A DNA stretch of 64,000 nucleotides from Naegleria gruberi (taxonomy: Eukaryota), in NCBI GenBank assembly GCA_000004985.1, contig GG738859.1. One strand, given 5' to 3'. Made by a program: the position numbers and the translations under genes. This document shows, in pieces, positions 1-25,895 of this stretch; position 1 is the first letter of the stretch; every line of letters begins with the position of its first letter. Below the pieces are notes generated by a model. The model saw only the letters and a list, made by a program, of their open reading frames with translations. It had not been told where the DNA came from and ran no database searches.

Positions 1-408
1 GAATTTGTTAACAAGGTTGTCTCAATTAGTGGGCGTGCAATAGCTCATGCAAGTGAAATTTTGAAACAGGACAGAGAGATAGTGTTAGCTGCTGTTTCTC
101 AAAATGGAAATGCATTGGCTTATGTTAATCATTTTAAGGATGATATGCAAGTGGTACTACGAGCAGTTGAGTCCAATGGTGATTCATTCCAGTTTGCCGA
201 TCCCAAATTACAAGGTGATAAAGAGTTTGTTTTACAGGTTGTGAAACAAAACGCAAAAGCCCTTTTATTTGCATCATCCAAGTTAAAAGCCGATAGGAAT
301 TTTATTTTGAAAATTGTGCAAACTAATGTATTCGCCTACCCTTACATTGGAGAGTACTTTAAAAACGATGAAGAAATTAAAGCAGTTTGGCAAAGTGCAT
401 CTCAATAA
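1..408 (+). CDS. DUF4116-repeat protein, C-terminal part (5' end lies upstream of window)
   Basis: Frame is open from nt 1 and stops with TAA at 406-408. It has three tandem ~35-aa repeats of the DUF4116 type (REIVLAAVSQNGNALAYV / MQVVLRAVESNGDSFQFA / KEFVLQVVKQNAKALLFA). The same repeat family recurs at 24154-25605. Confidence 0.6.
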   Translation, partial: EFVNKVVSISGRAIAHASEILKQDREIVLAAVSQNGNALAYVNHFKDDMQVVLRAVESNGDSFQFADPKLQGDKEFVLQVVKQNAKALLFASSKLKADRNFILKIVQTNVFAYPYIGEYFKNDEEIKAVWQSASQ

Positions 409-416
409 ATATGGTT

Positions 417-2921
417 TTAATGATGTGTTAATATTGAAATGTCAGCGAGGGGTGAAAAGTATTCAACTTGCGCCAAAAGTTTTTGCTTCATAATTGATTC
501 TTTGATGGCATTCATCTTATTTGATTCTGAATTTTCTAGCCAGTATGGATGCTCAATAATTTGCTCAATGGTGATTCGCTCTGCAGGATTCCAGGTAAAT
601 ATTCTTGAAATGAGATCGAGAGCCACCTCTGAGCAAGAATCCAAAGCGAAACTAAATGAATTTCTTTTAGATTGGAGTGTTCTTTCATTCATCTCGAAAA
701 TAATTCTTTCCTTCTCCTTTTCGTTAATTCCTTCCATATTGGAAAAACTGAACAAGGGTGAATGTGGTTGTCTTGGAATGGAAATGTCTTCAATTAGTTT
801 TCTCAACTCATCACATTTCCCTAATACCTTGAATTGATTAAGTGGTAGTAAGTGCTCACTCACTATAAGGCCGAATATAGAATTCCTCTCCTTATTTTCC
901 TTCCTAGATAGATACATTAACTCTGTAAGTATAACTCCAATAGTCCAAATATTTTGCTTTGAAATGATAGAGCTGATATTTCTCTCTGGGACTAAAGCAT
1001 TGGTACACATCATTAACAGAATTTCAGGAGCCCAATATCTCAATGACAATCTTGGCAGCAACTCCAAGTTATTGTTATTTTCCAAATCAGTAAAATCTAC
1101 CAGAACTTCAGTGTCATGTCTTTGTTTGGAAATAAGTAAGTTAGTATCTGGGTTGAGTAAAAGATTATTTGGGAATGAATTGCTGACCTTTTTGAGGAGC
1201 TTGAGCATGAATGAATTTACATCTTCTAAAGTAAAATCTGAATGCAATAAGCTATCCAAATAGTCAGTCAGATATGCTGAGGAATTTTCAATTTCAGATG
1301 GAAGATTCATTTCCACCGAGTTAGGAGTTACTGTTGGTGACTCAAAACTTCTGTGTGCGATGAAATTCTGAATTAATTCATACATTGTCTCTAGATTATA
1401 ATATTTACACCAATCCAATACATTGAATCCCATCTTGTCTCTTTCCATTGGGTTGTATCCTAGTTTGAGTAGTTCATAAACTTGATTGTACATTTCTCGT
1501 GCAGAAAAATGATGCAATAAAGAGTGGCCGTTGTAATCTCGTTTCAGCTTGAATTCTTCAAACTTTTCAGTGGAATCCATTGGAGACATTTCAAATTGAT
1601 CAAACAAGTTCATTGAATCCATTTCATTAACCGATGATTGGTTCTCGAGTACTCCAGATGTCAACTCGTCCAAATCATCTAAAAAGTTATCTTCATCTCT
1701 GACTTCTTGTAGTGATGCATTTTGCCCCAAACCAATAGAGTTTTCCTCTCCAAAGAATTGAAAATCCAATCCACCATTATCGCAAGTCAAAATCTCATGG
1801 TGGCCATACATTAGTTTTACAATGCATTCTAAATTATTTTCCTTAATTATTGGAGTGTAGCTAAATATTTCCAAATCGTGTCTTAAACCTTCCTGAAGTG
1901 GTGTTAATATATGTTTTCTTGTGATGTTATATACATTGGATGGATTGGCCTTTTCAATAAAGCAAATTGTAGTTGGAAGAGAAAATGGAGAAAATAAATG
2001 AGTAATAAGGGACGACTTCATCAGTAAATCATTCTCATTGAGTGAGACATAAATTACAAAGTGGGTAGATATTTTGCTGTGAGCCCTCGAAGGTGACATG
2101 CTCAAGAGTTGCAATTTCAATTCAGGTTGGGGAAGATGTGCTTTTGGTTGAGTAAGACCAAAAGGTGGGAAATTTGGGAATGGTTGTAAAAAGCTCATGT
2201 CCATCTTTGGAACCATTGAAGAGAGAGGTTGAGTGAACAAATCTCTCTTTCTTTTCTTAGCCATTGGATCATTTGCATCATCAGATGAGTTATTATCATT
2301 TACAAGGAGTGGAGGAAAAGATGAATTTGATGAGCTATCTGAGCTTCCAATAAATGATGAAGGTGTGGTGGTAATATCCATGGATGATGTAGCTGCCACT
2401 GGATTCTTTTCTCTATTGCATTCAAACTCATCAATTACTGTTTCAGTAACCCAGGCATATTTGTTCGTCCCAATTTCAACTCCATATGTATTAAGCCTGT
2501 CTTGACCAACTCTCCTACTCGATCTCTCATTAACAATCATGACACCAATACTTCCTAATACTTTGATAGGTCTATTCGAATAGATGGTTGGATGTCCATT
2601 CACATTCGATTTTTGAAAACTAATCACCTTGCCAATTTCATATTTGTGCCCATTAAATCCTCCAATAATTGTCCTATTCTTACTACATTGACCCTCTGAA
2701 TCAATAACAACTGGTTGATTCTTATACATTTGTTCTTCCGAGGATGTTGAACATGATGAAGACTTTTTCTTCTTTTTCTTCTTTACCTTCTCGTCCTTCA
2801 TTGGTTTCATATCCAAATCATCTTCCTTTTTAATATTCAATGTTGAATCAATCATGGTTGCTAGTGATGCTAGACTTTCATCCGATGATTTGTTGTTGAT
2901 CAATTGTTGTTGTGATTCCAT
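417..2921 (-). CDS. large hypothetical nuclear-type protein (834 aa) with C-terminal degenerate protein-kinase-like region, ankyrin-like repeat, poly-Lys tract and KKRKR NLS
   Basis: Single 2505-nt ORF with ATG at 2919-2921 and stop TAA (reverse complement of 417-419). The C-terminus has kinase subdomain VIII-XI-like motifs (RYWAPEIL, IWTIGVIL, HPYW). The catalytic-loop and DFG equivalents are altered (NLLLNPDTN, VDFTD), so it is a probable pseudokinase. A K9 tract and an S/N-rich linker are present. Confidence 0.4.
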   Translation of the reverse strand: MESQQQLINNKSSDESLASLATMIDSTLNIKKEDDLDMKPMKDEKVKKKKKKKSSSCSTSSEEQMYKNQPVVIDSEGQCSKNRTIIGGFNGHKYEIGKVISFQKSNVNGHPTIYSNRPIKVLGSIGVMIVNERSSRRVGQDRLNTYGVEIGTNKYAWVTETVIDEFECNREKNPVAATSSMDITTTPSSFIGSSDSSSNSSFPPLLVNDNNSSDDANDPMAKKRKRDLFTQPLSSMVPKMDMSFLQPFPNFPPFGLTQPKAHLPQPELKLQLLSMSPSRAHSKISTHFVIYVSLNENDLLMKSSLITHLFSPFSLPTTICFIEKANPSNVYNITRKHILTPLQEGLRHDLEIFSYTPIIKENNLECIVKLMYGHHEILTCDNGGLDFQFFGEENSIGLGQNASLQEVRDEDNFLDDLDELTSGVLENQSSVNEMDSMNLFDQFEMSPMDSTEKFEEFKLKRDYNGHSLLHHFSAREMYNQVYELLKLGYNPMERDKMGFNVLDWCKYYNLETMYELIQNFIAHRSFESPTVTPNSVEMNLPSEIENSSAYLTDYLDSLLHSDFTLEDVNSFMLKLLKKVSNSFPNNLLLNPDTNLLISKQRHDTEVLVDFTDLENNNNLELLPRLSLRYWAPEILLMMCTNALVPERNISSIISKQNIWTIGVILTELMYLSRKENKERNSIFGLIVSEHLLPLNQFKVLGKCDELRKLIEDISIPRQPHSPLFSFSNMEGINEKEKERIIFEMNERTLQSKRNSFSFALDSCSEVALDLISRIFTWNPAERITIEQIIEHPYWLENSESNKMNAIKESIMKQKLLAQVEYFSPLADISILTHH

Positions 2922-3279
2922 TGAACAATCCGAAATGACAACTCAATTCTTTACAATTTACTAAACTATTTTGCACCGATATTATCAATTTACTATTATC
3001 ATGCACTTTTCAAACTCTAACTGAAGATCTTAAAAGTGATTTCTCTTGTTTTTTTTCTCAATGTTCTCCAATTGCAACGAATGATGGATGCAGCAGAGTT
3101 CATCATGTTCATCCATTCAATATTCCGAAACTCTAAAAATTGGAACAACAAGAACGCAATCATGATGATGATTCACAAGGAATTTGATTGAAAAGACCTA
3201 ATTGTTTTGATTTGGGAGTAATTATTATATTAACAAATCACTCTCTAATCAATTTGATATAAAAAGCAAAATCAAAAAA

Positions 3280-6200
3280 ATGATTCAATCATCAGCAAGG
3301 AATCTTTCAAAACATTTGATGAGGAGTGGAGGTGTTGCTTTTAAACGTACAACCCTCTCCGAATTGGATAAAAAAGTAATTCTGATTAGACAATTGGTGG
3401 ATAGATTTTATTATTCGCAAAATAGAGAGTTTGGTCAGGATTTGTCCCTTGTTGGATTAAAGAATCAAAAGATTAATTTATCTGCTAACATGATGACAAA
3501 TAGTAGTAGTACGAATAATAATTCACGTTCCTATTCATCTTCTACATCACCATCCGAGAAGAAAATTCTACTTGTCGATGGTACTCCACTTGTTGTGAGA
3601 GCTTACTTTGGAACACCTCCTCTGACTTCGTAAGTGATTTTATTGCTTTTCATCAAATGGTTCGAATAATATACAAATAGATCTAATGGAACTCCAACTA
3701 ATGCAATTTTAACATTTGCAAAGAGTTTAATTGCCATTCTGAAATCGGATGAATTTGATCATGTGGCTATCTTTTTCGATTCTGGAAAACCTTCAATAAG
3801 GAAATCAATTTCATCTGATTATAAGGCAAACAGAAAACCAACTGAAGATGTAAGTTATGACCTAGCTTTAGGAGATTCTTAAAATGTTTAGAATTTGAAA
3901 AAACAATTTCCAATCTGTAAATTATTAGCCGAAAAGATGGGCCTAAAAGTGATAAGCAAGGACGGATTTGAAGCAGATGATCTCATTGCTACAGTAGCCA
4001 GACAAGCAAAGGATGAAAAGTTTAATTCAATTGTTGTGGTTTCCTCTGATAAGGATCTTCACTGCCTTTCGGATACAAATTTAACTCTTCTTGACCCAAT
4101 GACAAAGAAGAAATTAACAATGGACGATATAATTGGAAAGTATGAATTGCCTCCAAAGTTGATTCCAGAGTTTTTGGCACTTGTTGGTGACACTGCAGAC
4201 AATATTAAGGGTGTTAAAGGTATTGGAAAGAAGAAGGCAGTTTCACTGTTGGAACAATATGGATCAATTTCTGAAATTTTGAATAATTTGGACGATGAAA
4301 ATATGGAAAAGAAGTCAAGAGAGGCCATCAAGAGTAATATTGATGACCTTAAATTATCCTTGAGGTTAGTTGCTTTGGACGAAGAAGTTCCTTTGGATTA
4401 TTCTTTACAAGATTTCCAAGTTGACCAATCCTCACTGGATTTTTCACAAAACGAAGAGGTATGTTTATATAATAATGTTCACCATTTACAAACAATCGTC
4501 AGCTCATTAAAATGTTAGAGGATTTGGAAATTAATTCAGTCATTAAACAATTAAAGAAGGAAACAGATAAGAAGGAAAAAACTACAAAATCCAAATCTAA
4601 AAAGAAGGAAGTTATAGAATCTGTTGTACTCAGTGAAGAAATGTCCTCTGCAGATGTAGCCTCCTTAAAATTATCCCACGTCTCGGATGACTCTAAAATT
4701 GGTAAGATTGTCAAAGCATCAGAGTACAATATTATTCTGAATGAGAAAGAGTTAGACTCTTTCATTGAACAGGTGAAGATATCAGGAGTAAGTTTGCAAC
4801 AATTTTCAACATACTGACATAATTTAGAATGTTTGTTTCTCAACGGAAATTTGTCTATTAAGCTTACATAATCCTGTAATGGCTGGTATATCATTCTGCA
4901 TTAGTCCAGGACAAGCATACTATCTTCCATTTTTCAAGGGTGGAAAGGTTGAATTTTTAGATTCTGTAAATATTCTAAAGGAAAGTCCAATACTTTCAAA
5001 GGTTAGGACAGAAATTATGGAAAATCCAAACATTCTCAAGATTGGCCACAATATCAAGTATCATATCAAAATGCTTGCAAACTATGGAGTTACAGGTAAG
5101 TTTTAAATTTATTTATTATTTACTAATATTCAATAGTGAAAAACTTTGACGATATCATGGTAATGTCTTATGTTTTAAATTGTGGTAAACATGGTCATGA
5201 AATGGATGAAATTGTAGAAAATGTCTTGTTACTCGATCCTAAGGAACATATCATTCCAGAGAAAGAAGTGCTTGGCATTGGTAAAAAGAAGGTTACCCTT
5301 ATGGAGGCAGATATTGTCAGTGTTGTTCATTTTGCATGCCAACATGCTGACTTGACTAAACAAGCATATGATGTTTTAAAGTCAGCCCTAGATAAGAGTC
5401 CTAAACTTACTCAATTTTACGAAGGTATCGAAAAACCTCTTGTTGAAACACTTGCAGGTATTGAAATGAAGGGAGTTTTTATGGATGAACCTGCCCTTGT
5501 GAAGATGGAAAACGAATATAGAGAAAAGATCAAAGCCATTGGAAATAAGATAAGAGAAGATGCAGGATATCCAACTATTGATGAAGATATTGAAATCCCT
5601 ACTTCAGAAGAGGAAATTGAAAGTATGATCATTGAAATGGATGAAATGAAACAAGAAGCTTCTGAAGAATTCAATATTAATTCAAATAGACAATTGGGAC
5701 AAGTGATATTCGAAAAATTGGGAATTGGTACAAAGTTAAGAAAAAAGACCAAAGTTGGAGATTATATTTTGAATGCTGAAGTTTTACAAAAACTTGCCGC
5801 AGAAGGACACAGCATTGCCAAGCATATTCTAGAATATAGGGCCTTAACCAAACTCTACAGTACATACATCTCTGGATTAAGACAACATATCAACCCATAC
5901 ACAAAGAGAATTCACACCACTTTCCAAAATGCCCTTACGGTTACTGGTAGATTGAGCTCAGTCATGCCAAACATTCAGAACATTCCTGTCAGAACAGCTG
6001 AAGGTAAACAAATAAGAAGATGTTTCATTTCTCCTTCTGATGATTATGTAATAATGAAGGTCGACTATTCACAGGTAGAGTTGAGAATTTTAGCCCATAT
6101 TGCCAATATTCCAGTGCTTAAGAATGCCTTTAAAGAAAATAAGGACGTTCACGCCATTACAGCCAGTCAAGTTTTCAATGTTCCACTCGATCAGGTCGAT

Positions 6201-6755
6201 AAGTCAACCAGAAATAAGGCCAAGGCCATTAACTTTGGTATTATCTATGGTATGAGTGAATTTGGTTTATCAAAGAGAATTGGAGTAGACACTCAAGCCG
6301 CCAAGTCATTTATTGAACAATACTTTAAGCAATATCCAGGTATTAAGAATTACATGACCAAGACTATTGAATTTTGTAGAAAACATGGTTATGTAAATAC
6401 TCTTTTCAACAGAAGATGTTGGATACCTGGTATTGAGGACCAAGGATTTGGAGGAAAATCATCTTTTGGTGAGAGAACAAGTATCAATACTCCAATCCAA
6501 GGTACCTCAGCTGATATCACAAAGATTGCAATGAACTCATTACACAAGGCATTCCAGGAGAAGGGATTGAGAACCAGAATGATTATTCAAGTTCATGATG
6601 AAATTGTTTTTGAAGTACCAAAGGATGAAGTGGAAACAGTCGAACCAATCATTAAGGAACTCATGGAAGGTGCAGCATTCTTTGGTGGAACAAACTTTAC
6701 GGTGCCACTAACCGTCGAAGCTACAGTTGACTCAAAATGGTTGGCAGATGAATAA
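3280..6755 (+). CDS. family A (bacterial Pol I-type) DNA polymerase with N-terminal 5'-3' exonuclease domain; 6 exons, ~1085 aa; N-terminal presequence
   Basis: Exons are 3280-3629, 3681-3849, 3892-4458, 4503-4787, 4828-5095 and 5137-6755. Introns are 51, 42, 44, 40 and 41 nt with GTAAGT/GTATGT donors, and splice phases are consistent. The N-terminus MIQSSARNLSKHLMRSGGVAFKRTT resembles an organellar presequence. The 5'-3' exonuclease (5' nuclease) domain is indicated by the motifs KKILLVDGTPLVVRAYFG, GFEADDLIATVA and LVGDTADNIKGVKGIGKK. The central region aligns to the Klenow 3'-5' exo domain but has Exo I altered (CFSTEI instead of FDTETD). Polymerase motifs are A DYSQVELRILAHI, B RNKAKAINFGIIYGMS and C QVHDEIVFE. 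An A7 run precedes the ATG. Confidence 0.85.
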
Positions 6756-6788
6756 ATAATAAATAATTTATTTCCTAGTAAAACTGGT
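6756..6788. promoter_or_regulatory. 33-bp convergent 3' spacer with AATAAA-type hexamers on both strands (shared poly(A) region of the Pol and SET genes)
   Basis: The sequence between the Pol stop TAA (6753-6755) and the SET stop (reverse complement of 6789-6791) is ataataaataatttatttcctagtaaaactggt. It carries AATAAA on the plus strand and TTTATT (= AATAAA on the minus strand). Confidence 0.4.
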
Positions 6789-9626
6789 TTAGGTTCTTGG
6801 TTTATGACTATTATATTTTCTCTTATTTGGTAAAGATGAGAGTCCTTCATAGGCTTTCACTTTGCTTATTCTTACATTGAATCTTCTCAACATTTCATAC
6901 TCATCTTCTTCACTTTCTGACTCGCTTTCAGATTCTTCTTCACTGCTACTGCTTTCCACAACTTTTCTTGGACGACCAACTTTTCTCTTTGTTTCACTTT
7001 GTTCATCCTTTCTTGGTCGACCAACTTTTCTTTTTGGTTCCTCCTCGTCCTTCTTGGTTTCTTTTTTCACGTTTTGTTGTTCGTCCTTTCTTGGTCTACC
7101 AACTTTTCTCTTTGGTGTTTCATCTTCGCTTTCAGAAGATGATTCTTCCTTAACTTTGGTATTGTGAACGATTCGTCTTGGCTTTGAATCTGCTGATTCT
7201 GATTTCACACTTGAACTACTACTACTAGTTGGCTTGGAAGATGTTGATTCCTTCTTAGTGACTACCTCTTTTGGTTTGGTTTCAGTTTCGTCCTTTCTTG
7301 GGCGACCAACCTTTCTCTTTGGAGCCTCTGGTTCTGGTGTTGTTTTTGCAGATGATGATGATGAAGAAGTAGAAGAAGGTTTTACAGGCTTTGGTTGAGA
7401 TATAGGTGTTTTTGGTGTGGTGAGAATTGGCTTGGCTGAACTAGTTGACTTTGATTCTTTCTTAACAGTACTAGGAGCAGGAGTTGTCTTCTTTTCAACC
7501 TTTTTCTCCTCTACCTTCTTTGGTCTTCCAACCTTTCTCTTTTCTTCCTCTACCCCTTTAGGAGTTGTAATAACAGAGTCACTCTTTCTTGGTCTACCAA
7601 CTTTTCGTTTAGCATCGGATCTAGCTTCTTTGTCATAGTCTGATTCTGATTCAGATTCACTGCTACTTTCCTCAACCTTTCTCTTTTTTGTTTGTTGTGT
7701 TTTCTTGTCTGTTGATTCATCCTTCTTTGGTCTTCCAACTTTTCGTTTGGCTTCAGATTTGGTTCCTTCAGTTCTAGCTTTAGACTTTTCCTTACTATCA
7801 CTACTTGAAGATGATTCAGATTTTCTTGGCCTACCCACTTTTCTCTTTTTCTCCTCTTCATCTGTATTCTTCTTTGGTCTGCCAACCTTTCTCTTTGATT
7901 TGCTCTTTTCATCATCAGATTCCTCATCATATGAAAGTTCAGAGTCTTCATCTTCCTCACTTTCGCTTTCAGATTCACTCTCCTCCATAGCTTTCTTTGG
8001 AGGTCTACCTCTTTTCTTTTTAGTTTCTTCTTCTGGTTTTTCTGCCTTCTTTTTGGCAGTTCTTGTCACTCTAGGTTGTGTTGTCTCAGTGAGTGATGTA
8101 GATATTCCAGCATTTTTACATCTTCTGGTTTTGAATTCGGTATGTCTCATTATTTCTCCTTTTTGAGCCTGTTCATACATTTTAGTCATGAGAGCTCGTT
8201 CGTACACAGTCAGACCAAACTCATCCAATTGTGGGGCATCATCCTTCTTTTGTGTCTCTTCTAATTGTCTTTCTATTGATAAAAATTGTCTGAAACGTTT
8301 CTTTTCAGTCTTTCTAATATTACGAATTAAAAAAGTATTTCCAAATTTTGCAGAGTCAATAACTTCTTTTGGAAGCTTTGAGCTGTCTTCCAATATTTTC
8401 AGTGTGTACAAAGTTCTTTGTTTGAATTTTGATTCAAGTTTGTGAGCTCTTAATTTTTTAGCTTGTTCACTATCCATTTGTGTTGATTTTTCCTTAGCTT
8501 CTAGCAAGGACATATCTTTTGATGTAATTGTTCCTCTGCAATTTGCACTTCCACAATAACATTTTTGGAAGGAAACACCATAACATTCCATTGCATAGTC
8601 AAAAGTAACTTCTTCTCCTTTTTCAATATCTCTAAGTGCAAAAACACCTATCCTAGATTGATGGCCAACTGTCCATTTTTGCAATACAGAGTTTGGATCA
8701 CAACTGTGATTAATAAACCTAGCATTATTACCCTTTTTTGAGGCATCAATAATTTGATTGGTACCAACTGAAAGGAAATAATAGTGGCGTTCACCATCAT
8801 AAGCTTCTTGTCTTTGTTTGTAAATTTTTTCATCTAATACTTCTCCTACATATTCAATAATAAAAGTTCCTTTTGAAATTTTCTCTTTAGCAAAAACTCC
8901 AAACCCCTTTTCACCAGCTCTTTTAACTTCTATTTTTTTCCAACTCTTTTTTTGAAATCTATTATTTGTGCATTTAGATCCACAACTACAATAGCCGATT
9001 ACACACTCCATGCACAATAATCTATTCACACAAAATTCACCACAGTGATCATCACCTGAAATATCTCCCTTTTTTGAAGGACCACAAGTACACATAATAA
9101 TGTCATCATCAAATAAATTTTTCCAGGCATAAACTGTACTATCACCTAAATAAATATTTTCATCAATCTTTTTAAATTGTCTGCTGTCGTAAGCTGCTTT
9201 TTCGTCATCTTCATCTTTTTGTTGATTTAATTCAATTTTCCTCTTCTTTTTTGGTAATTTAACTGTTTCTTCCGATGTTTTGTTTTTCTCATCCTTACTT
9301 TCAAGTCTATTATTTCCAGAAATAAATAATTCTTGTAATAACATGGCATCTTAAAAAATTAAATAAATTAAAATTAATAATAAATTACCTTCCATATCGT
9401 TCTTGGTATGTGATGCAATAGATTCTTGTTGTTCAACACCAGTAGATTTTTTATCATCTTTGTTTTCCTCTCCAGTTGATGACACTACATTTGATGATAC
9501 ACTATTTGGATTGGATAATTCTGATTGTTGGGTATTATCGCTTGGTGGAAGTATCTGATGATCTTCCGTCGTCCCTTCCTTGTTGGGCGATGATGACGAG
9601 GTTTGGCCACTTTCCGTTTGGCTCAT
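6789..9626 (-). CDS. SET-domain histone-lysine N-methyltransferase (AWS-SET-postSET, SET2/ASH1-like) with array of ~10 AT-hooks; 2 exons, ~932 aa
   Basis: On the minus strand the exons are 9389-9626 and 6789-9349, separated by a 39-nt intron (gtaattt...ttttaag) with consistent phase. The SET domain carries NHSCDPN and GEEVTFDY, and the post-SET motif is CYCGSANCRG. It is preceded by a Cys-rich AWS domain. The N-terminal two-thirds hold repeated KRKVGRPRK/KRKVGRPKK AT-hooks and S/E/D-rich acidic tracts. Confidence 0.85.
6950..8010. repeat. about 10 dispersed copies of a ~27-nt coding repeat (plus strand cttggtcgaccaacttttctctt and variants) encoding the AT-hook KRKVGRPRK
   Basis: Direct inspection finds copies at about 6961, 7012, 7088, 7303, 7524, 7594, 7728, 7835, 7876 and 7995, all inside the SET-gene coding region. 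Confidence 0.7.
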
Positions 9627-9974: not shown

Positions 9975-11315
9975 TTAATCGGTCATGTGATCACTAAAGA
10001 AATGTCTTGGAGTATCCTCAAGAACTAAATCTGTGGAAACTGTGCATGTATCTTTGAGGGTGTCATCAATAACTTGTTCCAATTCATCAGTCTTGGTCAT
10101 GGAGAGTGATTTGGTAATATTGGATGCAATCAATTTGACTGTTTCCATACTCTCTGGTGTATTCTTTACATATTGAGCTGTAATGTAGAGGAAAATGCTC
10201 ACAAAATTAAAGTAGATGGCCCAAGGGGACAGATCAGTTGTGAGAGCAAGATACAAATTGGCCACCAAACTCAATATCACTGCAATTTGTTTCTTCATAG
10301 AGTTGGTTTTCATCAACCAGTATGAACTGAGTGTTAATACTGCAGCACACAGAAATTCCTTCCAAATGAGTCCTAATATTCTCCAAATAAAATCTCCTTT
10401 TCGACCCTTTGAGGATGATCGTGATGATGCATTCCTATTACTACTATTAGTATTATTATTTGAATATCGATTGGAATAAATTTGTCTTGAATTTCTAATA
10501 TTTTGCAATAATTCTGATATTTTTCCACTTGGACTTGCAACGTTATCCAGCATGGAGGAGAGTGATCTTGTCTGACCAGTTTTAATATGTTTCAATTGAT
10601 TCAATAATATTCTACTCGTCCTATTTTTTGATGTCAATCCATACTTATTCAATGTTTCAATATTATTTAATAATTTTGATGAAGAATTTGCTGATCCAGT
10701 CAATCCACTAGGTTTGTTATTCTTGAAAATTGAAATATAAGTAAATGGATTCAAAATCGTCCCCTTATTTGAATATGCAAGTTCATAGAGTCTTCTTCCA
10801 ACAGCATATATCGAAATCAAAGTATTACTAACAATTAAAATTCTTCTAGTATATTTAATTGCATAGGAATGACTTTCATCCATCATACTTTCAACAATAA
10901 CTTTTAATTCTTCAATTTCCGATCGTAATTGTTCAATTTCAAAATCTATAAAACTCTTAGATGATGATTGTGCAAGAAGAGGAGAGGGTGAATAGGACCC
11001 GAGTGATGGTGATTGGTCCACCATAGCACCCATCGATGATGATGAACTGAAAGGAGGAATTGAGAGAGGAGTTGTAAATGGTGATGATGAATGCAAAAAA
11101 TTAGAATCCCTCGATGAAGTTCTAAAGTGTGATGATCTCTTGTTACTACTACTTGCACCATTAATACTATTACCACTACTATTACTTGCACCAACAACGG
11201 AGGAAATTAAAGAGTCAATCCCATTGCTACTAGGTGTTCTTTTTATGGTTGAAATGAATTCCTCCTCAATGCTGTCATTCTCTCTGGTTGGCAGAACAGA
11301 TCTGACTTTACGCAT
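9975..11315 (-). CDS. hypothetical S/N-rich protein with central coiled-coil and two C-terminal transmembrane helices (TMCC-like architecture), 446 aa
   Basis: Single ORF with ATG at 11313-11315. Features are an S/N-rich disordered N-terminus, a heptad region (EIEQLRSEIEELKVIVESM), and hydrophobic helices (ILGLIWKEFLCAAVLTLSSYWLM, IAVILSLVANLYLALTT). Confidence 0.45.
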   Translation of the reverse strand: MRKVRSVLPTRENDSIEEEFISTIKRTPSSNGIDSLISSVVGASNSSGNSINGASSSNKRSSHFRTSSRDSNFLHSSSPFTTPLSIPPFSSSSSMGAMVDQSPSLGSYSPSPLLAQSSSKSFIDFEIEQLRSEIEELKVIVESMMDESHSYAIKYTRRILIVSNTLISIYAVGRRLYELAYSNKGTILNPFTYISIFKNNKPSGLTGSANSSSKLLNNIETLNKYGLTSKNRTSRILLNQLKHIKTGQTRSLSSMLDNVASPSGKISELLQNIRNSRQIYSNRYSNNNTNSSNRNASSRSSSKGRKGDFIWRILGLIWKEFLCAAVLTLSSYWLMKTNSMKKQIAVILSLVANLYLALTTDLSPWAIYFNFVSIFLYITAQYVKNTPESMETVKLIASNITKSLSMTKTDELEQVIDDTLKDTCTVSTDLVLEDTPRHFFSDHMTD

Positions 11316-11566
11316 TTTTTTAGATTTTTATTATCTTTAATGCAAGTAAATTGATAAAGCAATACAATGGATTATTATAAAGCAAAAAGACAGTCCTATT
11401 AAAAAAGATTACCTTGTTCATATGAGCATTAGAGCAAACAATCCTTGAGTTACTGAAATTATCATTCTGAGTGGTTCGATTGAGAATTGTTTTTGGTTTG
11501 TTTGCCTTTGTATTTCACAATTTTGGCGCCACATAAAATACAACAAAACCAAACAGAAAAAAAACA
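11316..11566. promoter_or_regulatory. 251-bp divergent intergenic region (putative bidirectional promoter)
   Basis: It lies between the minus-strand ATG at 11315 and the plus-strand ATG at 11567. The plus-strand start has an aaaaaaaacaATG context. Confidence 0.35.
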
Positions 11567-13582
11567 ATGCAACAACAACATTACTCTTACAAACAACAAC
11601 AATTTGGAATTTTAATACTCTTAATTTTATTTATTATTAACCTTGTCGGAACTGTAAAATCACAAACCAATTCCACAGATACAATAGATTATGTTGTTAA
11701 TTGGGATAATGTTCCAACAACAGCACCAACAGTTACCAATCCACAACAAAAGTCATTTGGTTCCTGTGTTTGTGATGTAACTTTAAATCAATGTGATGTT
11801 AACTGTTGTTGTGATCCTGATTGCGCATATTCAATAGTAGAAAACTCCTTCTCAAAATGTCTGGTGCCTTACACAAAGAAGGATTTTAATTATTTGTGTG
11901 TCCAAAAAACATTAGTAACTTTTAGTAATTTGAACAATTTGAAAATTTCAACTAAGGAAGTGGTACAAGATGCTGGAACACCTCTTTTTTGTGTTTACTT
12001 TGAAGCAGGTTTGTTTTAACTTTCAACCTATTTTAACATTTTGAAAAAGCCTCTGTTGATGGGTTGTATTATGCTGTTGTTTCCGATTTGGATGCAACAT
12101 CTATTAAGAAGGTATTTGAAAAGTATGAAGCTTTAACTACTTACAGAACTAGCTACACACAAAAGTATATTTATGATGTGGCAGCTGTCAAAACAAACAC
12201 AAGAGTAACTATATTTCAAGATGGTGATAAAATTCCTTACACCATATCGGCTCCTTCAAGCAACACCTCTCAAGTAACTACAGTATCCTATTTCACTTTG
12301 CATAGAAGCTCTAATTCGGATGTTTGTGAAAAAACTTTTGTAAAATTTATGAGAAATAATGGAAAAGAAAATAAGTGTTCATGGATTCCATCAACTTTAG
12401 AAGATTTCAGAACAAAATGTCTAGGAGATTTTAGTGTGAGCTCATTTGTATCGAACTACTTTTCATATGGAGCAGCACCAGATAGCTATTCTCAATACAT
12501 AAAAGTGGAACTTTTGGAAATGATATCAGTAAGTTCAAGTGGTGCAGAAACGGTTCTCTCAACCATTCCAACAACTACCTATGCCTCCCAAACTTGCACA
12601 AATGCTGTAATTGGAGCAAAATATTATTTTGTTTTTACTAGTTCAGGATCAATTTCAAAAGCTTACGTTACCTTAAGAGTCAAAACTCTGGTCAATCCTT
12701 CATTTGTTGAATTGAAATCACAAGTGAACTATATCAATGGGGTACGTTTAAATTTTATGGCTTTTTTCTAACAATAATTCTCAGACTATTTCAGATTTCA
12801 GACAGGGTGTAATCAAACCAAAGAGTGGTAATCCAGGTTATATTCGTAAAAAGCCTGTACTTGCTGGTTACATGGTAACAAACTCGGTAAAGAATGCTAT
12901 CTATCAACACTACTTGGGTCTGACTGCACCAACTGGATATGATTGCAGCTCCAAGAGTAGTATTCTGTTTGATGTGGATGCTGTATTTTCGTGCAGTTTC
13001 ACTTACACTCTTTCACAATTGAAAGCAGCATGTTTGTCAAATACATTTTCCCAATTAGAATCAAATGCCACATATGTAGGAAGATATGGTAATGCTGACT
13101 ATACAAATACTAACGATTGGGTAGCCATAGTAGAAGATTCCAAACCAAGCTCTGTAAGTATTTTTCATATTGTAAATAGTATTAACCCTCATCTAAAGAC
13201 ATGGGACGAACTTACACAAACATGTAATAACATTGCGGCAGGAATCGAATATCAAATTGTTATATCCAAGTCGGGTTCTGTTCAAAACGAGCAATGGAAA
13301 GTGCAAGGCATACAAAGATCTCGTTACTCTCTCACTTGGACCTTCAGTGGGGACAATACGAAAACAAACACTTTTTGGATTGAAACCAGAGTGAAATATG
13401 TAAGAACTGAAAATCAAGAAACCATCCAAAAGAATTATCCAGCTCCTAACTTTTTACCATTCCTTCCAGAAGATGTTTTCTATCCGTTCTCACTCCTCTT
13501 ATCATCCTCTTCTCAACCATATCACTTGATTTCTCTTCTTCCTTTCCTCCTTGTTTCTATTGTTTCAATTTTAGTTTTGTAA
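11567..13582 (+). CDS. TCTN: Tectonic-family (DUF1619) protein, ciliary transition-zone component homolog; 3 exons, ~643 aa; signal peptide and C-terminal hydrophobic anchor
   Basis: Exons are 11567-12008, 12050-12741 and 12785-13582, with 41- and 43-nt introns (GTTTGT and GTACGT donors). The signal peptide is GILILLILFIINLVGTVKS. The Tectonic signature [20 protein letters not shown] (human TCTN1 [20 protein letters not shown]) and KSGNPGYIRKKPVLAGY (human LSGNPGYVVGLPLAAGF) are both present. The C-terminal hydrophobic stretch is LISLLPFLLVSIVSILVL. Confidence 0.7.
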
Positions 13583-13704
13583 ATGGAAATATGCAAATTC
13601 TCTTTCTTTCCATTCAGAATGTTAGTGCTGCAATTCACAGCCTCTCAATTACACTCCCAACACATTCTTCTGCTATTCGATAGAAACTTGGAATTCAAAA
13701 AAAA

Positions 13705-15600
13705 ATGCCAAGTGATGAACGTGAAGGAAAATACTCATCAACCAACGAGGTAGATAATAACCACTCTGATGAAGTAGAAAATAAATCAAAAATTCCAAAG
13801 TATGACAATGATGAACAAAACCCTTCATCAAATGTAAAAGAATTGGCGGAAAGAGGTAAAAACAAAGTTCTTGAAATGATGATGAAAATGGGCTATAAGG
13901 AAGGAGAAGGTTTAGGTAAATTCGGTCAAGGAAATGCCTCCGTCGTCAATCCACAGGTAAATACAGGTAGAGGAGGTCTCGGAACAATTGATGAAACCTC
14001 TAACTTGTCGAATGTTGTCGAAAGTAGTGATGGAACTTATAAATTACCTTCAAATTTTCAAGTTCAAAGACATGAAGCTGATCCAAAGATTTATAGTCAT
14101 AAGGAAGAATTTGAATGGATTGCATGCAAGGAGGAAAATAGAAAAATCTACTCTGGACCAAATGATCCAATTTACAAAATTGTCAAACCAGAGAGTGATA
14201 ATTTGGATCCATCCAAAATGGCACCAAACGATGCTAATGAAGGACAAAATCCATTCATTGATCCTGAAATTATGAAATCCATTTTCAAAACAAAAGCAGA
14301 CTTTGATGATTTACCACCGAAAATATTCCTCGATGCAAGATTGAGATCTAATCCATATGAAAAAATTGGTAAATCAATCTTTCAAAATAGAGCTGCTGTA
14401 AAATTGGCTAATATTGATTTAGTAACAGATTTGACCAGTGAAACATCCTTGCCAAGACTTGTAGAAGAAAATGGCGTTCTCTATTTTGCAGATATTTGTG
14501 CTGGTCCAGGTGGTTTTACAGAATATTTATACTATAGATATAAAACCTCTAAAGCTAAGGGTTGGGGTTTCACGCTTAAGAATGATAAGGATGATTGGAA
14601 GTTGGAAAAATTCAATAATGAATCTCCATGTTCAAACTTTGAGTTAAATTATGGTGTGGATGGCACAGGTGACATTACCAAAAATGAAAATATGCTTTGT
14701 CTTGATGATGCTGTAAATAGAGGAACAAATAATAGAGGATTGGCACTTGTGACTGCTGATGGAGGATTTTGTGTTGATGGTGTTGAGAACTCTCAAGAAT
14801 ACTTGACACAACAATTAGTTCTTTGCCAATTTTTGACTGCTCTTCTTACTTTGAGAAAGGGGGGATGTTTTGTTTGCAAATTATTCGATTTGAATACCTG
14901 GTTTTCTGCCTCTCTGATATATGTCATGTATCAATACTTTGAAAAGGTTACCATTTTCAAACCATTTTCATCGAGACCAGCAAACTCTGAAAGATACATT
15001 GTTTGCAAGGGAATGACAGAAAGAAAGCCTGAAATTATCAAGTTTCTTCTCCAAGCCAATACCAGACTTTCTGAACGGAAACCAATCAAATCACTTGTTG
15101 ATTGTGATGTAATGACTTCTGATAAGGAATTTGCTCAATTTATGACCACCTCTAATAATACCTTCTCAGAAAATCAAGATTATAATTTGAAACGATTGAA
15201 AATGGCAATTGAAGATAGGTATATTGATATTAAGGATCTTCAATACCAACTTCAACAATCATGTCTAAAAGAGTGGAATTTACCTGAATCAAGATCCAGA
15301 TCGTATAATAAGAGATCTTATGATAATTATAGAGGTAATAGGTCATATGACAGAGACAGGAATTATAGTGGTGGACGTGGAGGTTATGGTGGAAATCGTG
15401 ATAACAACAGATATGATAACAGAAATAATGATAGCAGATATGATAGACATGACAGAAGGGATAACAATGATTATTACAACAATAATGGTAGAAGCAATAA
15501 TAGTCGTAACTATGGAAGAGTAAATAATCATGACGACAGATATGAAAGAAGAGATTCCCATCATTCAAATTCATACAGAAATGACAGACATTACAGATAA
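13705..15600 (+). CDS. cap-specific mRNA ribose 2'-O-methyltransferase-like protein (G-patch + FtsJ/RrmJ methyltransferase, CMTR1-like) with R/D/N/Y-rich C-terminal tail, 631 aa
   Basis: Single ORF with ATG at 13705 after an A9 run. The G-patch is MMKMGYKEGEGLGKFGQGNASVVNPQVNTGRGGLG. The SAM-methyltransferase motif I is YFADICAGPGGFTEY and the fold is RrmJ-like. The last ~100 aa are RSYDNYRGNRSYDRDRNYSGGRGGYGGNRDNNRYDNRNN... low complexity. Confidence 0.7.
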   Translation: MPSDEREGKYSSTNEVDNNHSDEVENKSKIPKYDNDEQNPSSNVKELAERGKNKVLEMMMKMGYKEGEGLGKFGQGNASVVNPQVNTGRGGLGTIDETSNLSNVVESSDGTYKLPSNFQVQRHEADPKIYSHKEEFEWIACKEENRKIYSGPNDPIYKIVKPESDNLDPSKMAPNDANEGQNPFIDPEIMKSIFKTKADFDDLPPKIFLDARLRSNPYEKIGKSIFQNRAAVKLANIDLVTDLTSETSLPRLVEENGVLYFADICAGPGGFTEYLYYRYKTSKAKGWGFTLKNDKDDWKLEKFNNESPCSNFELNYGVDGTGDITKNENMLCLDDAVNRGTNNRGLALVTADGGFCVDGVENSQEYLTQQLVLCQFLTALLTLRKGGCFVCKLFDLNTWFSASLIYVMYQYFEKVTIFKPFSSRPANSERYIVCKGMTERKPEIIKFLLQANTRLSERKPIKSLVDCDVMTSDKEFAQFMTTSNNTFSENQDYNLKRLKMAIEDRYIDIKDLQYQLQQSCLKEWNLPESRSRSYNKRSYDNYRGNRSYDRDRNYSGGRGGYGGNRDNNRYDNRNNDSRYDRHDRRDNNDYYNNNGRSNNSRNYGRVNNHDDRYERRDSHHSNSYRNDRHYR

Positions 15601-15846
15601 ATTTACCTACTCAACCTTTTAAATGAAGTTTCTCTTGCCCTACAATGTTCATTTACAGTTTTCCAATCAATCACCATAGTCCTCTTCATCAAATAAATTA
15701 ATAATAATTTAATATTTAATTATTACTGTTATTGTTTATTATATTGTTCAAAGGAAAAAAGCAAGAAATGCCCAAGATTTATTTGTAAAGACCGTAAGAT
15801 GTGATCGGGAAGGAAGTAATTATGGTGTGTGGATAGAAGATTATGT

Positions 15847-16473
15847 TTACATTTCATATTCAGCAGCTTCCAATGTAGACAACAATGGTTCTAGGAGTTC
15901 CAAACCAATTTCAGCTTGACCTCTAACAGCATTGTCTCTGCTCTTCAGCAATTCCTTTTGAGCTTCAACTTCACGTCTAACGAGATTGACATCCAATTCA
16001 TCAAGTTTGTATGCTTCAGACAAGTTCAATTGAACAAAACCGTGATAGTAAACAAAAGCGAAACCACCAGCACTGAACCATTTAACAGTCTTTTCATCGT
16101 TATATTTGATTTTGATAAGTCCAGGATTAATTCTCATAACTTGAGTTCTGTGGTTAGGGAAGATACCATAGTCACCGAATTCAACAGTGGAGAGAGAAAT
16201 GTCATCAACTTTATCACTTCTGATGATGTAACTGTTGTTTGTACAGAGAGTGAGGGTAAGTTTTTTAGTTTGGATGGCTTCAGTCAAATCATCAGGGAGT
16301 GATTTAACGAAACGATTTGGAATGTAAGAAAAGGCATCTTCAATTTCTTGTTTATCCTTCTTCTTTTCAGAGGCGAAACGCTTTACAACATTGTTGCAAG
16401 CAACAGCCAAAATTTTCTTTGATGATTGGTTGTTGTTAACTCTGAGGAGTGGCTTGGTGATGTTCTTGAGCAT
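15847..16473 (-). CDS. mitochondrial F1 ATP synthase delta subunit (bacterial epsilon homolog) with presequence, 208 aa
   Basis: ATG at 16471-16473. The ~40-aa basic N-terminus (MLKNITKPLLRVNNNQSSKKILAVACNNVVKRF) precedes a beta-sandwich region (LTLTLCTNNSYII...QVMRINPGLIKIKY...WFSAGGFAFV) and a C-terminal helical hairpin. This is the pattern of yeast ATP16 and bovine delta. Confidence 0.55.
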   Translation of the reverse strand: MLKNITKPLLRVNNNQSSKKILAVACNNVVKRFASEKKKDKQEIEDAFSYIPNRFVKSLPDDLTEAIQTKKLTLTLCTNNSYIIRSDKVDDISLSTVEFGDYGIFPNHRTQVMRINPGLIKIKYNDEKTVKWFSAGGFAFVYYHGFVQLNLSEAYKLDELDVNLVRREVEAQKELLKSRDNAVRGQAEIGLELLEPLLSTLEAAEYEM

Positions 16474-18891: not shown

Positions 18892-19144
18892 TTTGTTATT
18901 ATTGTGATCTTTTTTTTATTTAATTTTTAAAATATTTTTTAACCTAGTTTTGGCGGGAATTTGGTGTTGGCATCTTTAAAATCATCTTGATTTGTGGCAA
19001 GAATATATTAATGTATTTCACAAAGTAGAACATTCAGGATTTTCATATGGGAAGCTGAAGCTATTGATTTGGTATTGAGATTTAGGAGGTTATTTTGTTT
19101 TTATTTGAGGGTAGATTGATATTTCACAAATTCATGAAGCAAAT

Positions 19145-19263
19145 GGCTACGGCCATATCACGATGAATGCACCTCATCCCGTCCGATTTGAGAAGTTAAG
19201 CATCGTCGAGCCACATCAGTACTGAGGTTGGAGACAACTTGGGAACCTGTGGTGCTGTAGTCT
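19145..19263 (+). rRNA. 5S ribosomal RNA gene (single copy in window, dispersed)
   Basis: The gene reads GGCTACGGCCATATCACGATGAATGCACCTCATCCCGTCCGATTTGAGAAGTTAAGCATCGTCGAGCCACATCAGTACTGAGGTTGGAGACAACTTGGGAACCTGTGGTGCTGTAGTC. The 5' and 3' ends pair to form helix I. Conserved box A and box C-like internal elements are present (CCGATCTCGTCTGATCTCGGAAGCTAAGC-type; GGGAGACC...GGGAA). Confidence 0.85.
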
Positions 19264-19268
19264 TTTTT
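19263..19268 (+). terminator. RNA polymerase III T-run terminator (TTTTTT) immediately 3' of the 5S gene
   Basis: The sequence tcttttttcg directly follows the 5S 3' helix strand. Confidence 0.6.
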
Positions 19269-19445
19269 CGTGAAATTTTTTATCTGAGTTTCCTGACCAA
19301 TGAATCTTCCAAGTGTCATTATTTCAAGAGTTTCGTTAAAATGTAAATTCATCTTTATGAGAATCATAAGAGGTCACCTCATACTGATGCTCCACTCTCA
19401 ATAAGGAGAAGAATAGATTTTATTATTGAATTATTCGTAAACTCT

Positions 19446-20093
19446 TTAGACAACTTGTTGATAGGAAGCCTTTCTTCTTCTGAGTACAAAGAAAATCAAT
19501 CCAGCACAACATCCAACACAACACAAAACTCCAATAATACCTCCAACAGATGCAACAGCAATCACAATTGCTGCAGTATTATCTTGTTGAGGAATGATGG
19601 TCAAATCAATAAAAACTCTTGCTGTGGCACCTTCATAGGATGGATTTCTCTTGACGAGAACTCTAATCTTACCCAAGTCGGTTCTTGGTAGAGTGACTAT
19701 ATTACCCTTTGATGATAGGTAGCCACTGTTTGGGAAGTAAAAGTAGAACATGTATTCTGCAATGGAAGGTGGAACATAGGCAGGGTTGGCTTTAACTTTT
19801 TCAACAAAGTCATTATATTGAGGTTCTGTTAAAAAGTAAACAGAAGCTCCATAGCCAGAGCTTGAATAATTCATTTTGAATTGATTATAGTCTGGACCTA
19901 CTTGACATTCCAATGCAATGGCATACTCATTGCTCCATGAAAATTTATAGTCCTTATCCACTGGTGTGCAAGGAGTTGCAACTTGTTGTTGTTGGCTTGT
20001 TGCAACCACAGTAGCATGTGAATTGTTCAACAAAAAGAGAATGGCAACAATTGAGAATAAGACTAAAGTGCAAGAGTTGAGTGGAGTATTCAT
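19446..20093 (-). CDS. type I membrane glycoprotein, LAMP-like topology, paralog A (215 aa)
   Basis: ATG at 20091-20093. It has a signal peptide, a luminal domain with conserved Cys and N-glycosylation sites, one C-terminal TM (IVIAVASVGGIIGVLCCVGCCAGLIFFVL) and a short basic tail RRRKASYQQVV ending in a YxxPhi-like motif. Confidence 0.55.
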   Translation of the reverse strand: MNTPLNSCTLVLFSIVAILFLLNNSHATVVATSQQQQVATPCTPVDKDYKFSWSNEYAIALECQVGPDYNQFKMNYSSSGYGASVYFLTEPQYNDFVEKVKANPAYVPPSIAEYMFYFYFPNSGYLSSKGNIVTLPRTDLGKIRVLVKRNPSYEGATARVFIDLTIIPQQDNTAAIVIAVASVGGIIGVLCCVGCCAGLIFFVLRRRKASYQQVV

Positions 20094-20631
20094 CAATGCA
20101 GCTTGTTTTTTTTAAGTGTTCACTTTAACACTCCGTGTAAGCAAGGTTATGAATCTTATAGGAGGTTACCATTTGAACATCATGCTAAGAATGGATATTT
20201 AAGAGATTGAATACGCAACATAAGCGTACAATTGGATCATCGAAGTAAAAAAGTGCAAAGCAACATGGTTTGAAACAGTTTACAACAAATGTCAATTCAA
20301 CTTATTAATACGACATTTCATGTTTTGAGGGAGAGTACATGAGTACATAATATCCTGTAATTGTTAGATTATTCAAAGAGACTTGGCATCTTTTTACTTG
20401 CAAGTAAAAACTTTCAAATTCATTTCTATTTAGTTTTCAAAAATTGGTTAATAGAAACTTCCTTTTCGCTTTTGAGCTTTCCAAACTATTATTCGAATCT
20501 ATAATATGTTACCAAGGATTAGTGAAATCAAACCTTTCATTGAAACCCTTTACAACGGTATAGATATTTTAAAAATAAATTTCAAAGAAGAGACGCTGCC
20601 AGATGTGTTACAAAAAGATAATAACATTCAT

Positions 20632-21297
20632 TTAAACTTGTTGATAAGCATCTGATACCATGGGTGTTGTCATTTGTTCATTGCTCATAGCAACTTTTCT
20701 TCTTTTAACCACAAACACAATGAATGCAATGGCACATGCTCCACAACACAACACTCCAATCAATCCTCCAACAACCATAACAGCAATCACAATCGATTTG
20801 GAATTGTTTTTTTGTGGAGTGATTAGCATTTCAAGATAAACACTGGATACTGAGGTTGTTGGTAAGGTTGGATTTCGTTTTACAAGAACTCTGATGGTGC
20901 CATAACCTTCATCTCTTGGCTTGGGGATGACATCACCTTTGGAAATCTTGTAGGAAGTATCAGAGTAGTAGAAGGAATGCAAAAATTCTGGCGGAAGGTA
21001 TTGTGGATTGGATTTCACATTTTCAAGAAAGGAAGAATATTGAGAATCTAATAGAACAAACACGGAAGAACCATATCCATAGGTTGAGAATGTAATTTTG
21101 AGTTCATTGCATTCAGAAGATACTTGACATTCCATTGCAATCGAATAATTGTTAGCATGTGAAAATTTAAAGGTTTCTTCCATATAACATGGTGTTGCAC
21201 TTTGACAATGAACAGTGGAGGAACTGATTAACAATAATTGGAGAGCAATCATTAACGCGAAAACCACTAACAGTAACGAATTGTTTGAAGTGTTCAT
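20632..21297 (-). CDS. type I membrane glycoprotein, LAMP-like topology, paralog B (221 aa)
   Basis: ATG at 21295-21297. It is colinear with paralog A: ATPC...FKFS...Y.IA.ECQV, GTIRVLVKRNP versus GKIRVLVKRNP, TM IVIAVMVVGGLIGVLCCGACAIAFIVFVV, and a tail KRRKVAMSNEQMTTPMVSDAYQQV ending in YQQV. Confidence 0.55.
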   Translation of the reverse strand: MNTSNNSLLLVVFALMIALQLLLISSSTVHCQSATPCYMEETFKFSHANNYSIAMECQVSSECNELKITFSTYGYGSSVFVLLDSQYSSFLENVKSNPQYLPPEFLHSFYYSDTSYKISKGDVIPKPRDEGYGTIRVLVKRNPTLPTTSVSSVYLEMLITPQKNNSKSIVIAVMVVGGLIGVLCCGACAIAFIVFVVKRRKVAMSNEQMTTPMVSDAYQQV

Positions 21298-21486
21298 AGT
21301 GTGTTTCTTTTTTTTTCTTGTTTTTATTCGATTCTCCTATTTAATCGAAAATGGACATGGTGCCCCTTTTATGAGATCATACATTCACTTATCTCTAAAA
21401 ACAAACACTTCTAAGCATTACTATCCATTGTAAAACTATCTACGAATTGAAATTTAATTAAATTTCAAATTCTGAAAAGAAAAAAA

Positions 21487-25605: not shown

Positions 25606-25895
25606 ATTTCATTCCATGAATACACATTAAGGTGGTAACCTCCACAACTATTAACCATTCATCCGTACTAAAAAATCCTTCAAAAGAGAAAGCGTTGAGT
25701 TTATTCTACTGCAGTGAGGAGGTTATTTTTTCGTACACCAGTATATATTGAGGCTTCACGAAATTGATTGATAACCATTGCAATACAGACATTAAGTTTA
25801 CAACAAAGATTGCTTGCGTTTCAGAGGCCAAAAACTGCGCAACAAAAATCTCGCTGAGCCAACAGACCAAGCTAAATAAAAACAATTTAAAAAAA

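Follow-up and report, generated by a model that had tools for sequence, protein, structure and literature searches.

Within a 64,000-nucleotide stretch of the Naegleria gruberi genome (contig GG738859.1 of assembly GCA_000004985.1; hereafter the window), the locus at 3280..6755 on the plus strand is very probably the nuclear Naegleria rdxPolA gene, whose mitochondrion-targeted product derives from a DNA polymerase I (PolI) of alphaproteobacterial type. From its ATG to its TAA stop the gene comprises six exons separated by five introns, and it specifies a PolI-type precursor of 1085 amino acids (aa), as judged from the spliced open reading frame (ORF), Pfam and NCBIfam matches, and orthologues. 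A first-pass annotation made from the letters of the DNA had called a PolI converted into an organelle-targeted nuclear gene unusual. That description is fair, but the case is not new, because the family has been published as rdxPolA together with targeting data (Harada et al. 2024, Mol Biol Evol 41:msae014, PMC10877234). rdxPolA is a family A polymerase of jakobids, heteroloboseans, Tsukubamonas, malawimonads and ancyromonads, which form a fully supported clade; the distribution thus comprises Discoba minus Euglenozoa, plus malawimonads and ancyromonads (PMC10877234). In the N. gruberi protein XP_002679000.1, the first 95 residues constitute a mitochondrial targeting sequence (MTS) predicted by MitoFates that sends GFP to yeast mitochondria, and the protein was found in the published N. 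gruberi mitochondrial proteome (PMC10877234). The length of the published MTS fits the 94-aa extension of the window protein and that of no other orthologue, and the window gene is almost certainly the published N. gruberi rdxPolA. With the family already known, what our analysis adds to the main text of Harada et al. is the residue-level loss of the 3'-5' exonuclease site.

The first-pass annotation had described an N-terminal 5'-3' exonuclease domain, a central 3'-5' exo-like fold and polymerase motifs A, B and C, and each of these is present, the domains being recovered with Pfam. The 5'-3' exonuclease/flap endonuclease domain (aa 95-352; 3562..4428, plus strand as for all features of the gene, spanning introns 1 and 2) was matched by 5_3_exonuc_N (PF02739, aa 95-257, E 1e-45) and 5_3_exonuc (PF01367, aa 260-352, E 4e-26). 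The 3'-5' exonuclease-like domain, which has a degenerate active site (aa 437-640; 4725..5417, spanning introns 4 and 5), was matched by DNA_pol_A_exo1 (PF01612, aa 437-580, E 2e-12, 47.6 bits against a cut-off of 23.6). The family A polymerase domain (aa 706-1082; 5613..6743) was matched by DNA_pol_A (PF00476, E 3e-143), and its motifs A (DYSQVELR), B (RNKAKAINFGIIYG) and C (QVHDE) are present. Relative to bacterial PolI, the protein has in addition a Lys-rich linker of about 40 aa (approximately aa 372-432) and an acidic insertion of about 30 aa (aa 691-722).

The relatives of the protein place it within rdxPolA. Among the best matches of a protein search, the orthologues of N. fowleri, N. 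lovaniensis and Willaertia magna were 71%, 70% and 50% identical, respectively, and the nearest bacterial PolI proteins showed 33-38% identity (37-38% at most). When a profile of three heterolobosean sequences, limited to their Klenow-like part, was used as the query, the matches also included Acrasis kona, Percolomonas, several metagenomic and EukProt fragments, and the "mitochondrial A-family DNA polymerase" of Andalucia; each named bacterium among the top 120 matches was alphaproteobacterial or was labelled only Proteobacteria/Pseudomonadota (a metagenome-assembled genome, MAG). The enzyme of Andalucia godoyi is the type member of the family and was first noted by Gray et al. 2020, with a remnant of the 5'-nuclease only (PMC7050145). 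A neighbour-joining tree was computed from 402 polymerase-domain columns of 66 sequences with 200 bootstrap replicates. Heteroloboseans and Andalucia were monophyletic in 99% of the replicates, in a test that covered heterolobosean and jakobid members of the family, and in 71.5% this eukaryotic clade grouped with alphaproteobacterial PolI apart from all named PolI of other bacteria (71.5-72% when a second neighbour-joining analysis, with distances capped because of saturation, is included). A scan of GTDB gave Alphaproteobacteria for about 73 of the best 80 loci among the matches listed. The window protein, then, is a family A polymerase of PolI-like plan that forms a clade with the Andalucia type sequence, has alphaproteobacteria as its nearest bacteria, and belongs to a heterolobosean, i.e., to Discoba outside Euglenozoa; orthologues of 70-71% identity and synteny with N. 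fowleri and N. lovaniensis place the window in Naegleria. It shares with XP_002679000.1 and the Andalucia enzyme the domain plan and the alphaproteobacterial affinity, and with the former also the heterolobosean host and an N-terminal extension of matching length. In the published analysis rdxPolA grouped with alphaproteobacterial PolI with a maximum-likelihood bootstrap percentage of 97, and both the maximum-likelihood and the Bayesian trees put it next to, and outside of, the sampled Alphaproteobacteria (PMC10877234). Our own trees agree with that topology, and positions as sister to and as nested in the Alphaproteobacteria are both compatible with them.

An ancient endosymbiont-derived or horizontally acquired enzyme had been suggested in the first-pass annotation, and an ancient endosymbiont-related origin is probable. 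Harada et al. proposed a proto-mitochondrial PolI as the ancestor of rdxPolA without excluding lateral gene transfer (PMC10877234). According to the latter possibility, the gene was obtained from an alphaproteobacterium that served as prey or endosymbiont rather than from the proto-mitochondrion, and it later spread or was kept in a few lineages. The patchy distribution of the family (PMC10877234) would be explained in this way, and alphaproteobacterial PolI proteins were monophyletic apart from the eukaryotes in only 55% of our replicates. However, heteroloboseans and the jakobid Andalucia not only group together but both have a degenerate 3'-5' exonuclease site, so that any transfer must predate the jakobid-heterolobosean split, and a recent horizontal transfer into Naegleria is excluded. 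Moreover, a place next to but outside the sampled Alphaproteobacteria is what one would expect of a mitochondrial ancestor (PMC10877234). On balance we regard lateral transfer from a non-mitochondrial source as unlikely, although it is one of the two alternatives that deserve serious weight.

The N-terminal extension (aa 1-94; 3280..3561) is a putative mitochondrial presequence, identified by its composition and poor conservation. It has a net charge of +8 and 24% Ser plus Thr, in keeping with the basic and hydroxylated character reported at first pass, its first acidic residue is at position 28, and residues 5-23 form an amphipathic stretch; these features fit a mitochondrial presequence. Identity among Naegleria species is 15-27% in the presequence and 38-45% in the linker, and 68-86% in the domains overall (71-74% in the 5'-nuclease domain and 68-69% in the 3'-5' exo-like domain). 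Each of the heterolobosean orthologues carries its own non-conserved N-terminal extension of approximately 115-156 aa, and bacterial PolI proteins have none.

We examined the three active sites by aligning the window protein with the product of E. coli polA (from NC_000913), which served as the reference for residue numbering. All nine carboxylates of the 5'-nuclease are kept: D13, D63, E113, D115, D116, D138, D140, D185 and D188 of E. coli correspond to D100, D150, E200, D202, D203, D226, D228, D273 and D276 of the window protein. The 5'-3' exonuclease domain is thus intact, as had been claimed. The polymerase site is equally complete, with 12 of 12 residues conserved (E. coli R668, D705, E710, H734, R754, K758, F762, Y766, Q849, H881, D882 and E883); the catalytic positions in the window numbering are D856, E861, R905, K909, F913, Y917, H1033, D1034 and E1035. 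The 3'-5' exonuclease site is degenerate. D355 is replaced by S462, D424 by H536, Y497 by F612 and D501 by H616, and E357 alone is retained (E464), which means that three of the four metal-binding carboxylates have been replaced. The first-pass annotation had pointed to the altered Exo I motif CFSTEI (aa 460-465; 4834..4851), which aligns with FDTETD of E. coli, and had suggested that proofreading may be lost. The damage reaches Exo II and Exo III as well, and at the level of residues the suggestion is supported. Klenow mutants such as D355A/E357A and D424A lose proofreading, and the rdxPolA of the window should, for this reason, be unable to proofread.

The same alteration was found across the family as far as it was sampled. 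Every eukaryotic rdxPolA that we retrieved (the window protein, about 15 other heterolobosean sequences and Andalucia) combines a degenerate 3'-5' exonuclease site with an intact polymerase site; the pattern of active sites in the N. fowleri orthologue matches that of the window protein. Andalucia has P, E, A, F and R at the positions of D355, E357, D424, Y497 and D501, where the nearest alphaproteobacterial PolI proteins retain D, E, D, Y and D. The two lineages differ in the 5'-nuclease, since all nine carboxylates are kept in each heterolobosean sequence that covers the domain but were lost in Andalucia (P0219), which reads CMSDDEGED at these positions. The absence of the proofreading carboxylates is common to the Discoba members retrieved, which suggests that the loss is old within the rdxPolA family. 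Loss of proofreading is not exotic in itself, because dead exonuclease sites are common in bacterial PolI: the DEDYD site was kept in 137 of 202 aligned sequences, most of them bacterial PolI, and the remainder were non-canonical. Neither proofreading nor motifs nor catalytic residues are mentioned in the main text of the 2024 paper (PMC10877234).

The exo-like domain is nevertheless under constraint, as indicated by its 68% identity within Naegleria and by the His of an "HIK" motif that occupies the D424 position in 12 of 16 heteroloboseans. The domain may have taken on a structural or DNA-binding role. We also considered whether a new catalytic site has arisen in it, and rejected this, since heteroloboseans show free variation at positions 355, 357 and 501, and wide conservation is limited to the His at 424.

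These observations can be assembled into a sequence of events. The six-exon pre-mRNA would be spliced, as conserved intron positions and polymorphism (see below) indicate, and the 1085-aa precursor would enter mitochondria by means of its basic, hydroxylated presequence of about 94 aa, a step that others have demonstrated with the N. gruberi protein and that the sequence features suggest here. The mature enzyme would synthesize mitochondrial DNA (mtDNA) with its intact family A polymerase site, and its N-terminal 5'-nuclease would clear RNA primers and flaps by nick translation. The 3'-5' exo-like domain, with three of its four metal-binding carboxylates gone, would be retained as a conserved structural module that does not proofread. 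A role as the main replicase and a role as a gap-filling and primer-removing enzyme are both compatible with this scheme.

Should the enzyme be confined to primer removal, gap filling and repair, as is bacterial PolI, bulk mtDNA replication would fall to another polymerase. The combination of an intact 5'-nuclease with an intact polymerase is the classic design for nick translation and Okazaki-fragment processing, the role of bacterial PolI summarized in PMC7050145, and an enzyme devoid of proofreading carboxylates would be an odd sole replicase. In contrast, Harada et al. detected no POP or other organellar family A polymerase in lineages bearing rdxPolA, and they treat rdxPolA as the mitochondrial DNA polymerase (PMC10877234); nor was a Pol III-type replicase found in Andalucia (PMC7050145). 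We consider a restriction to repair to be improbable, but far from negligible. If rdxPolA is indeed the sole replicase, the loss of proofreading carboxylates from the Discoba sequences retrieved would imply either that mtDNA replication in these lineages does without proofreading or that another protein provides it in trans, a proposal that we put forward tentatively and to which we give slightly less than an even chance. Andalucia has a separate mitochondrial 5'-3' exonuclease and a mitochondrial DnaQ-like protein (PMC7050145), and the latter, a DEDDh exonuclease, is a candidate for proofreading in trans.

Bacterial PolI, represented by E. coli PolA and the Taq enzyme, is likewise a three-domain protein with intact polymerase and 5'-nuclease sites. 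The 3'-5' exonuclease sites of Taq and Bst PolI are dead and these enzymes do not proofread, a condition that the window protein shares. Unlike bacterial PolI, the window gene is nuclear and has introns, and its product carries a 94-aa presequence, the extra linker and the acidic insertion. If PolI is defined by the full set of polymerase, 5'-nuclease and proofreading functions, the window protein has the first two and fails at the Exo I/II/III residues, as do many bacterial PolI proteins of the Taq type. The cryptoPolA of cryptophytes is also derived from alphaproteobacterial PolI and was analyzed alongside rdxPolA, but it differs in being localized to the plastid; it is confined to cryptophytes and regarded as a separate acquisition (PMC10877234).

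We next consider the structure of the gene. Between 3280 and 6755 the plus strand shows a series of ORFs in differing frames that are interrupted by five short GT..AG segments. Excision of these segments yields a coding sequence of 3258 nt with no internal stops, which encodes the 1085-aa product. The start codon at 3280 is preceded by seven A residues and is the earliest in-frame start downstream of a stop. Exon 1 (3280..3629, codons 1-116 plus 2 nt, delimited from the spliced ORF and a comparison with N. fowleri) is followed by intron 1 (3630..3680, 51 nt, GTAAGT..TAG, phase 2), exon 2 (3681..3849), intron 2 (3850..3891, 42 nt, GTAAGT..TAG, phase 0), exon 3 (3892..4458), intron 3 (4459..4502, 44 nt, GTATGT..CAG, phase 0), exon 4 (4503..4787), intron 4 (4788..4827, 40 nt, GTAAGT..TAG, phase 0), exon 5 (4828..5095), intron 5 (5096..5136, 41 nt, GTAAGT..TAG, phase 1), and exon 6, which includes the stop codon (5137..6755); exons 2 to 6 were likewise taken from the spliced ORF. 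The donor is GTAAGT in four introns and GTATGT in one, and an AG acceptor is present in all five. The A-tract before the ATG and the five introns of 40-51 nt with GTAAGT/GTATGT donors, as read at first pass, are therefore all in place, and the ORF is unbroken once they are removed.

Two comparisons bear on whether these segments are introns. The annotated N. fowleri orthologue, whose exon structure we reconstructed, has five introns of 89, 51, 57, 70 and 50 nt, and all five coincide in alignment column and phase with those of the window gene. The second comparison was with a metagenome contig of 8473 nt (L083; ENA ERZ929261, PRJEB11402) that is 99.6% identical to window positions 345-8812. In the exons of the polymerase gene only 3 of 3258 nt differ between the two, all of them synonymous, whereas 6 of 218 nt differ in the introns, among them a 1-nt deletion in intron 2 and a 3-nt deletion in intron 3. 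Such a distribution is what one would expect of non-coding segments, and a coding region would not tolerate the 1-nt deletion within intron 2. The six-exon nuclear gene proposed in the first-pass annotation is thereby upheld: the N-terminal exons are part of one gene that has the same six exons in N. fowleri, and both conservation and polymorphism argue that the introns are spliced. Gene calling in the prokaryotic style had cut the polymerase on L083 into exon-sized ORFs, e.g., the 539-aa product P0121, which is identical to exon 6 and is labelled DNA_pol_A only. Eukaryotic genes of this kind can thus be mistaken, in protein catalogues built from metagenomes, for short pieces of "bacterial" PolI.

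The surroundings of the gene are also eukaryotic. Window positions 516-22026 are colinear with N. fowleri by tblastx, and the N. fowleri locus shares the neighbors, with a kinase-like gene upstream and the SET/AT-hook, ATP synthase delta, MYST acetyltransferase, SLD5 and EndoG genes downstream; the window also encodes ordinary eukaryotic proteins such as LKR/SDH, COPA, UTP15, an EF-G-like protein and an RNA-dependent RNA polymerase (RdRP). If the gene were a contaminant from a bacterium, or an unspliced polA of bacterial origin joined to a eukaryotic scaffold by misassembly, the match to a bacterial PolI equivalog and the splitting of the locus into ORFs by a prokaryote-style caller would be accounted for. 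However, the frame would be broken five times without splicing, the introns have canonical ends and share their positions with those of N. fowleri, the genes on either side are eukaryotic and show synteny with that species, and identity to bacteria reaches 35-38% at best, so that contamination is effectively refuted and we assign it almost no probability. Based on these results, we conclude that the rdxPolA locus is confirmed as a real, spliced, eukaryotic nuclear gene.

The PolI identity of the protein is equally clear. Two NCBIfam equivalogs for DNA polymerase I were passed by wide scores (NF004397, 928 bits against a cut-off of 720; TIGR00593, 796 against 600). The best matches in the PDB were Taq polymerase (E 4e-136) and the Klenow fragment (5e-123); the apicoplast PREX polymerase, Pol nu and Pol theta followed at approximately 1e-41 to 1e-44, about 90 orders of magnitude behind, and Pol gamma was absent among the 60 PDB matches listed. 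POP, Pol gamma and the kinetoplastid PolI-type organellar polymerases are all members of family A with a DNA_pol_A domain in common, and an enzyme of one of these kinds could merely resemble bacterial PolI; against this stand the full-length equivalogs, the complete 5'-nuclease domain, the PDB ranking, our neighbour-joining tree and the published global tree, in which rdxPolA is set apart from POP and PolIA-D (PMC10877234), and such an identity is effectively refuted, with hardly any probability left to it. The first-pass annotation was right to call the protein bacterial Pol I-type rather than POP or Pol gamma.

The organellar enzymes differ from rdxPolA in other respects. POP has an active 3'-5' exonuclease, and POP and Pol gamma are not known to have a 5'-nuclease domain. 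POP is also a nucleus-encoded, organelle-targeted family A polymerase, but the window protein shows, on this view of POP, the opposite pattern, with a live 5'-nuclease and a dead 3'-5' exonuclease. POP proteins have also been credited with an N-terminal 5'-3' exonuclease (PMC7050145), and they form a separate clade whose origin is unclear (PMC10877234, PMC7050145). Kinetoplastid PolIA and PolIB/C/D and the Pol gamma of animals and fungi are mitochondrial family A polymerases too, but belong to other clades. According to Harada et al., euglenozoans exchanged rdxPolA for these enzymes (PMC10877234). Pol gamma resembles the polymerases of phages T3/T7 (PMC7050145) and is a proofreading enzyme.

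Several points weigh against the assignment of the locus as a mitochondrial rdxPolA that has lost proofreading. The assignment to N. gruberi relies on indirect evidence, namely the agreement of the 94-aa extension with the 95 aa published for XP_002679000.1 and a GC content of 34%. Splicing of the five introns is argued from conserved positions and polymorphism, targeting was judged here from features of the extension, and the failure to proofread was deduced from residues only. The trees computed here are crude neighbour-joining reconstructions, and in the one from full-length sequences the heteroloboseans fell beside AT-rich, long-branch Pelagibacterales and an exo-less alphaproteobacterial MAG; we rejected these as a specific sister group, taking the result as likely compositional or long-branch attraction. 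Lastly, the patterns used in the GTDB scan, INFGIIYG and [YF]EADDLIA, may favor Alphaproteobacteria, and the scan was given a supporting use only.

Other features of the window were recorded as well. A gene on the minus strand (6789-9344) converges on the polymerase gene and specifies a protein that has an AWS/SET domain and numerous AT-hook repeats of the KRKVGRPRK type. The two stop codons are only 33 nt apart, and the 3' ends of the two genes must consequently nearly touch or overlap. Two blocks, at approximately 11000-15800 and 18900-21800, have no counterpart in the compared N. fowleri stretch; the former contains a tectonic-like ORF (12872-13582) and a G-patch/FtsJ methyltransferase (13705-15600), and the latter includes an ORF at 20632-21297. 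The ATP synthase delta orthologue is located at approximately 15843-16437 on the minus strand. In the EndoG-like nuclease (21487-22818, plus strand) about 150 residues precede the Endonuclease_NS domain, and in the bifunctional LKR/SDH ORF (25764-28973, plus strand) about 110 residues precede the first domain; presequences on both proteins, which the first-pass annotation had assigned to these and to ATP synthase delta, are plausible. An ORF of 483 aa (24154-25605, plus strand) is built from DUF4116 repeats, of which five stretches were matched (210 bits). Two adjacent ORFs on the minus strand, 54022-55929 and 56125-58068, each match part of the eukaryotic RdRP family (PF05183 positions 162-581 and 1-91, respectively), and they are probably one RdRP gene split by an intron.

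Among organellar DNA polymerases, rdxPolA alone can be traced phylogenetically to the alphaproteobacterial neighborhood of the mitochondrial ancestor, and the family therefore bears on how mtDNA was replicated in the last eukaryotic common ancestor. Since the case is already in print, with the N. gruberi protein as one of the tested examples, the window provides confirmation rather than discovery; its practical yield is a gene model with six exons that has been verified and, for the three active sites, a map at the level of residues. The apparent loss of proofreading becomes of interest if rdxPolA is the sole mitochondrial replicase, and it is relevant to the fidelity of mtDNA in Naegleria; the orthologue of the pathogen N. 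fowleri shares this pattern.

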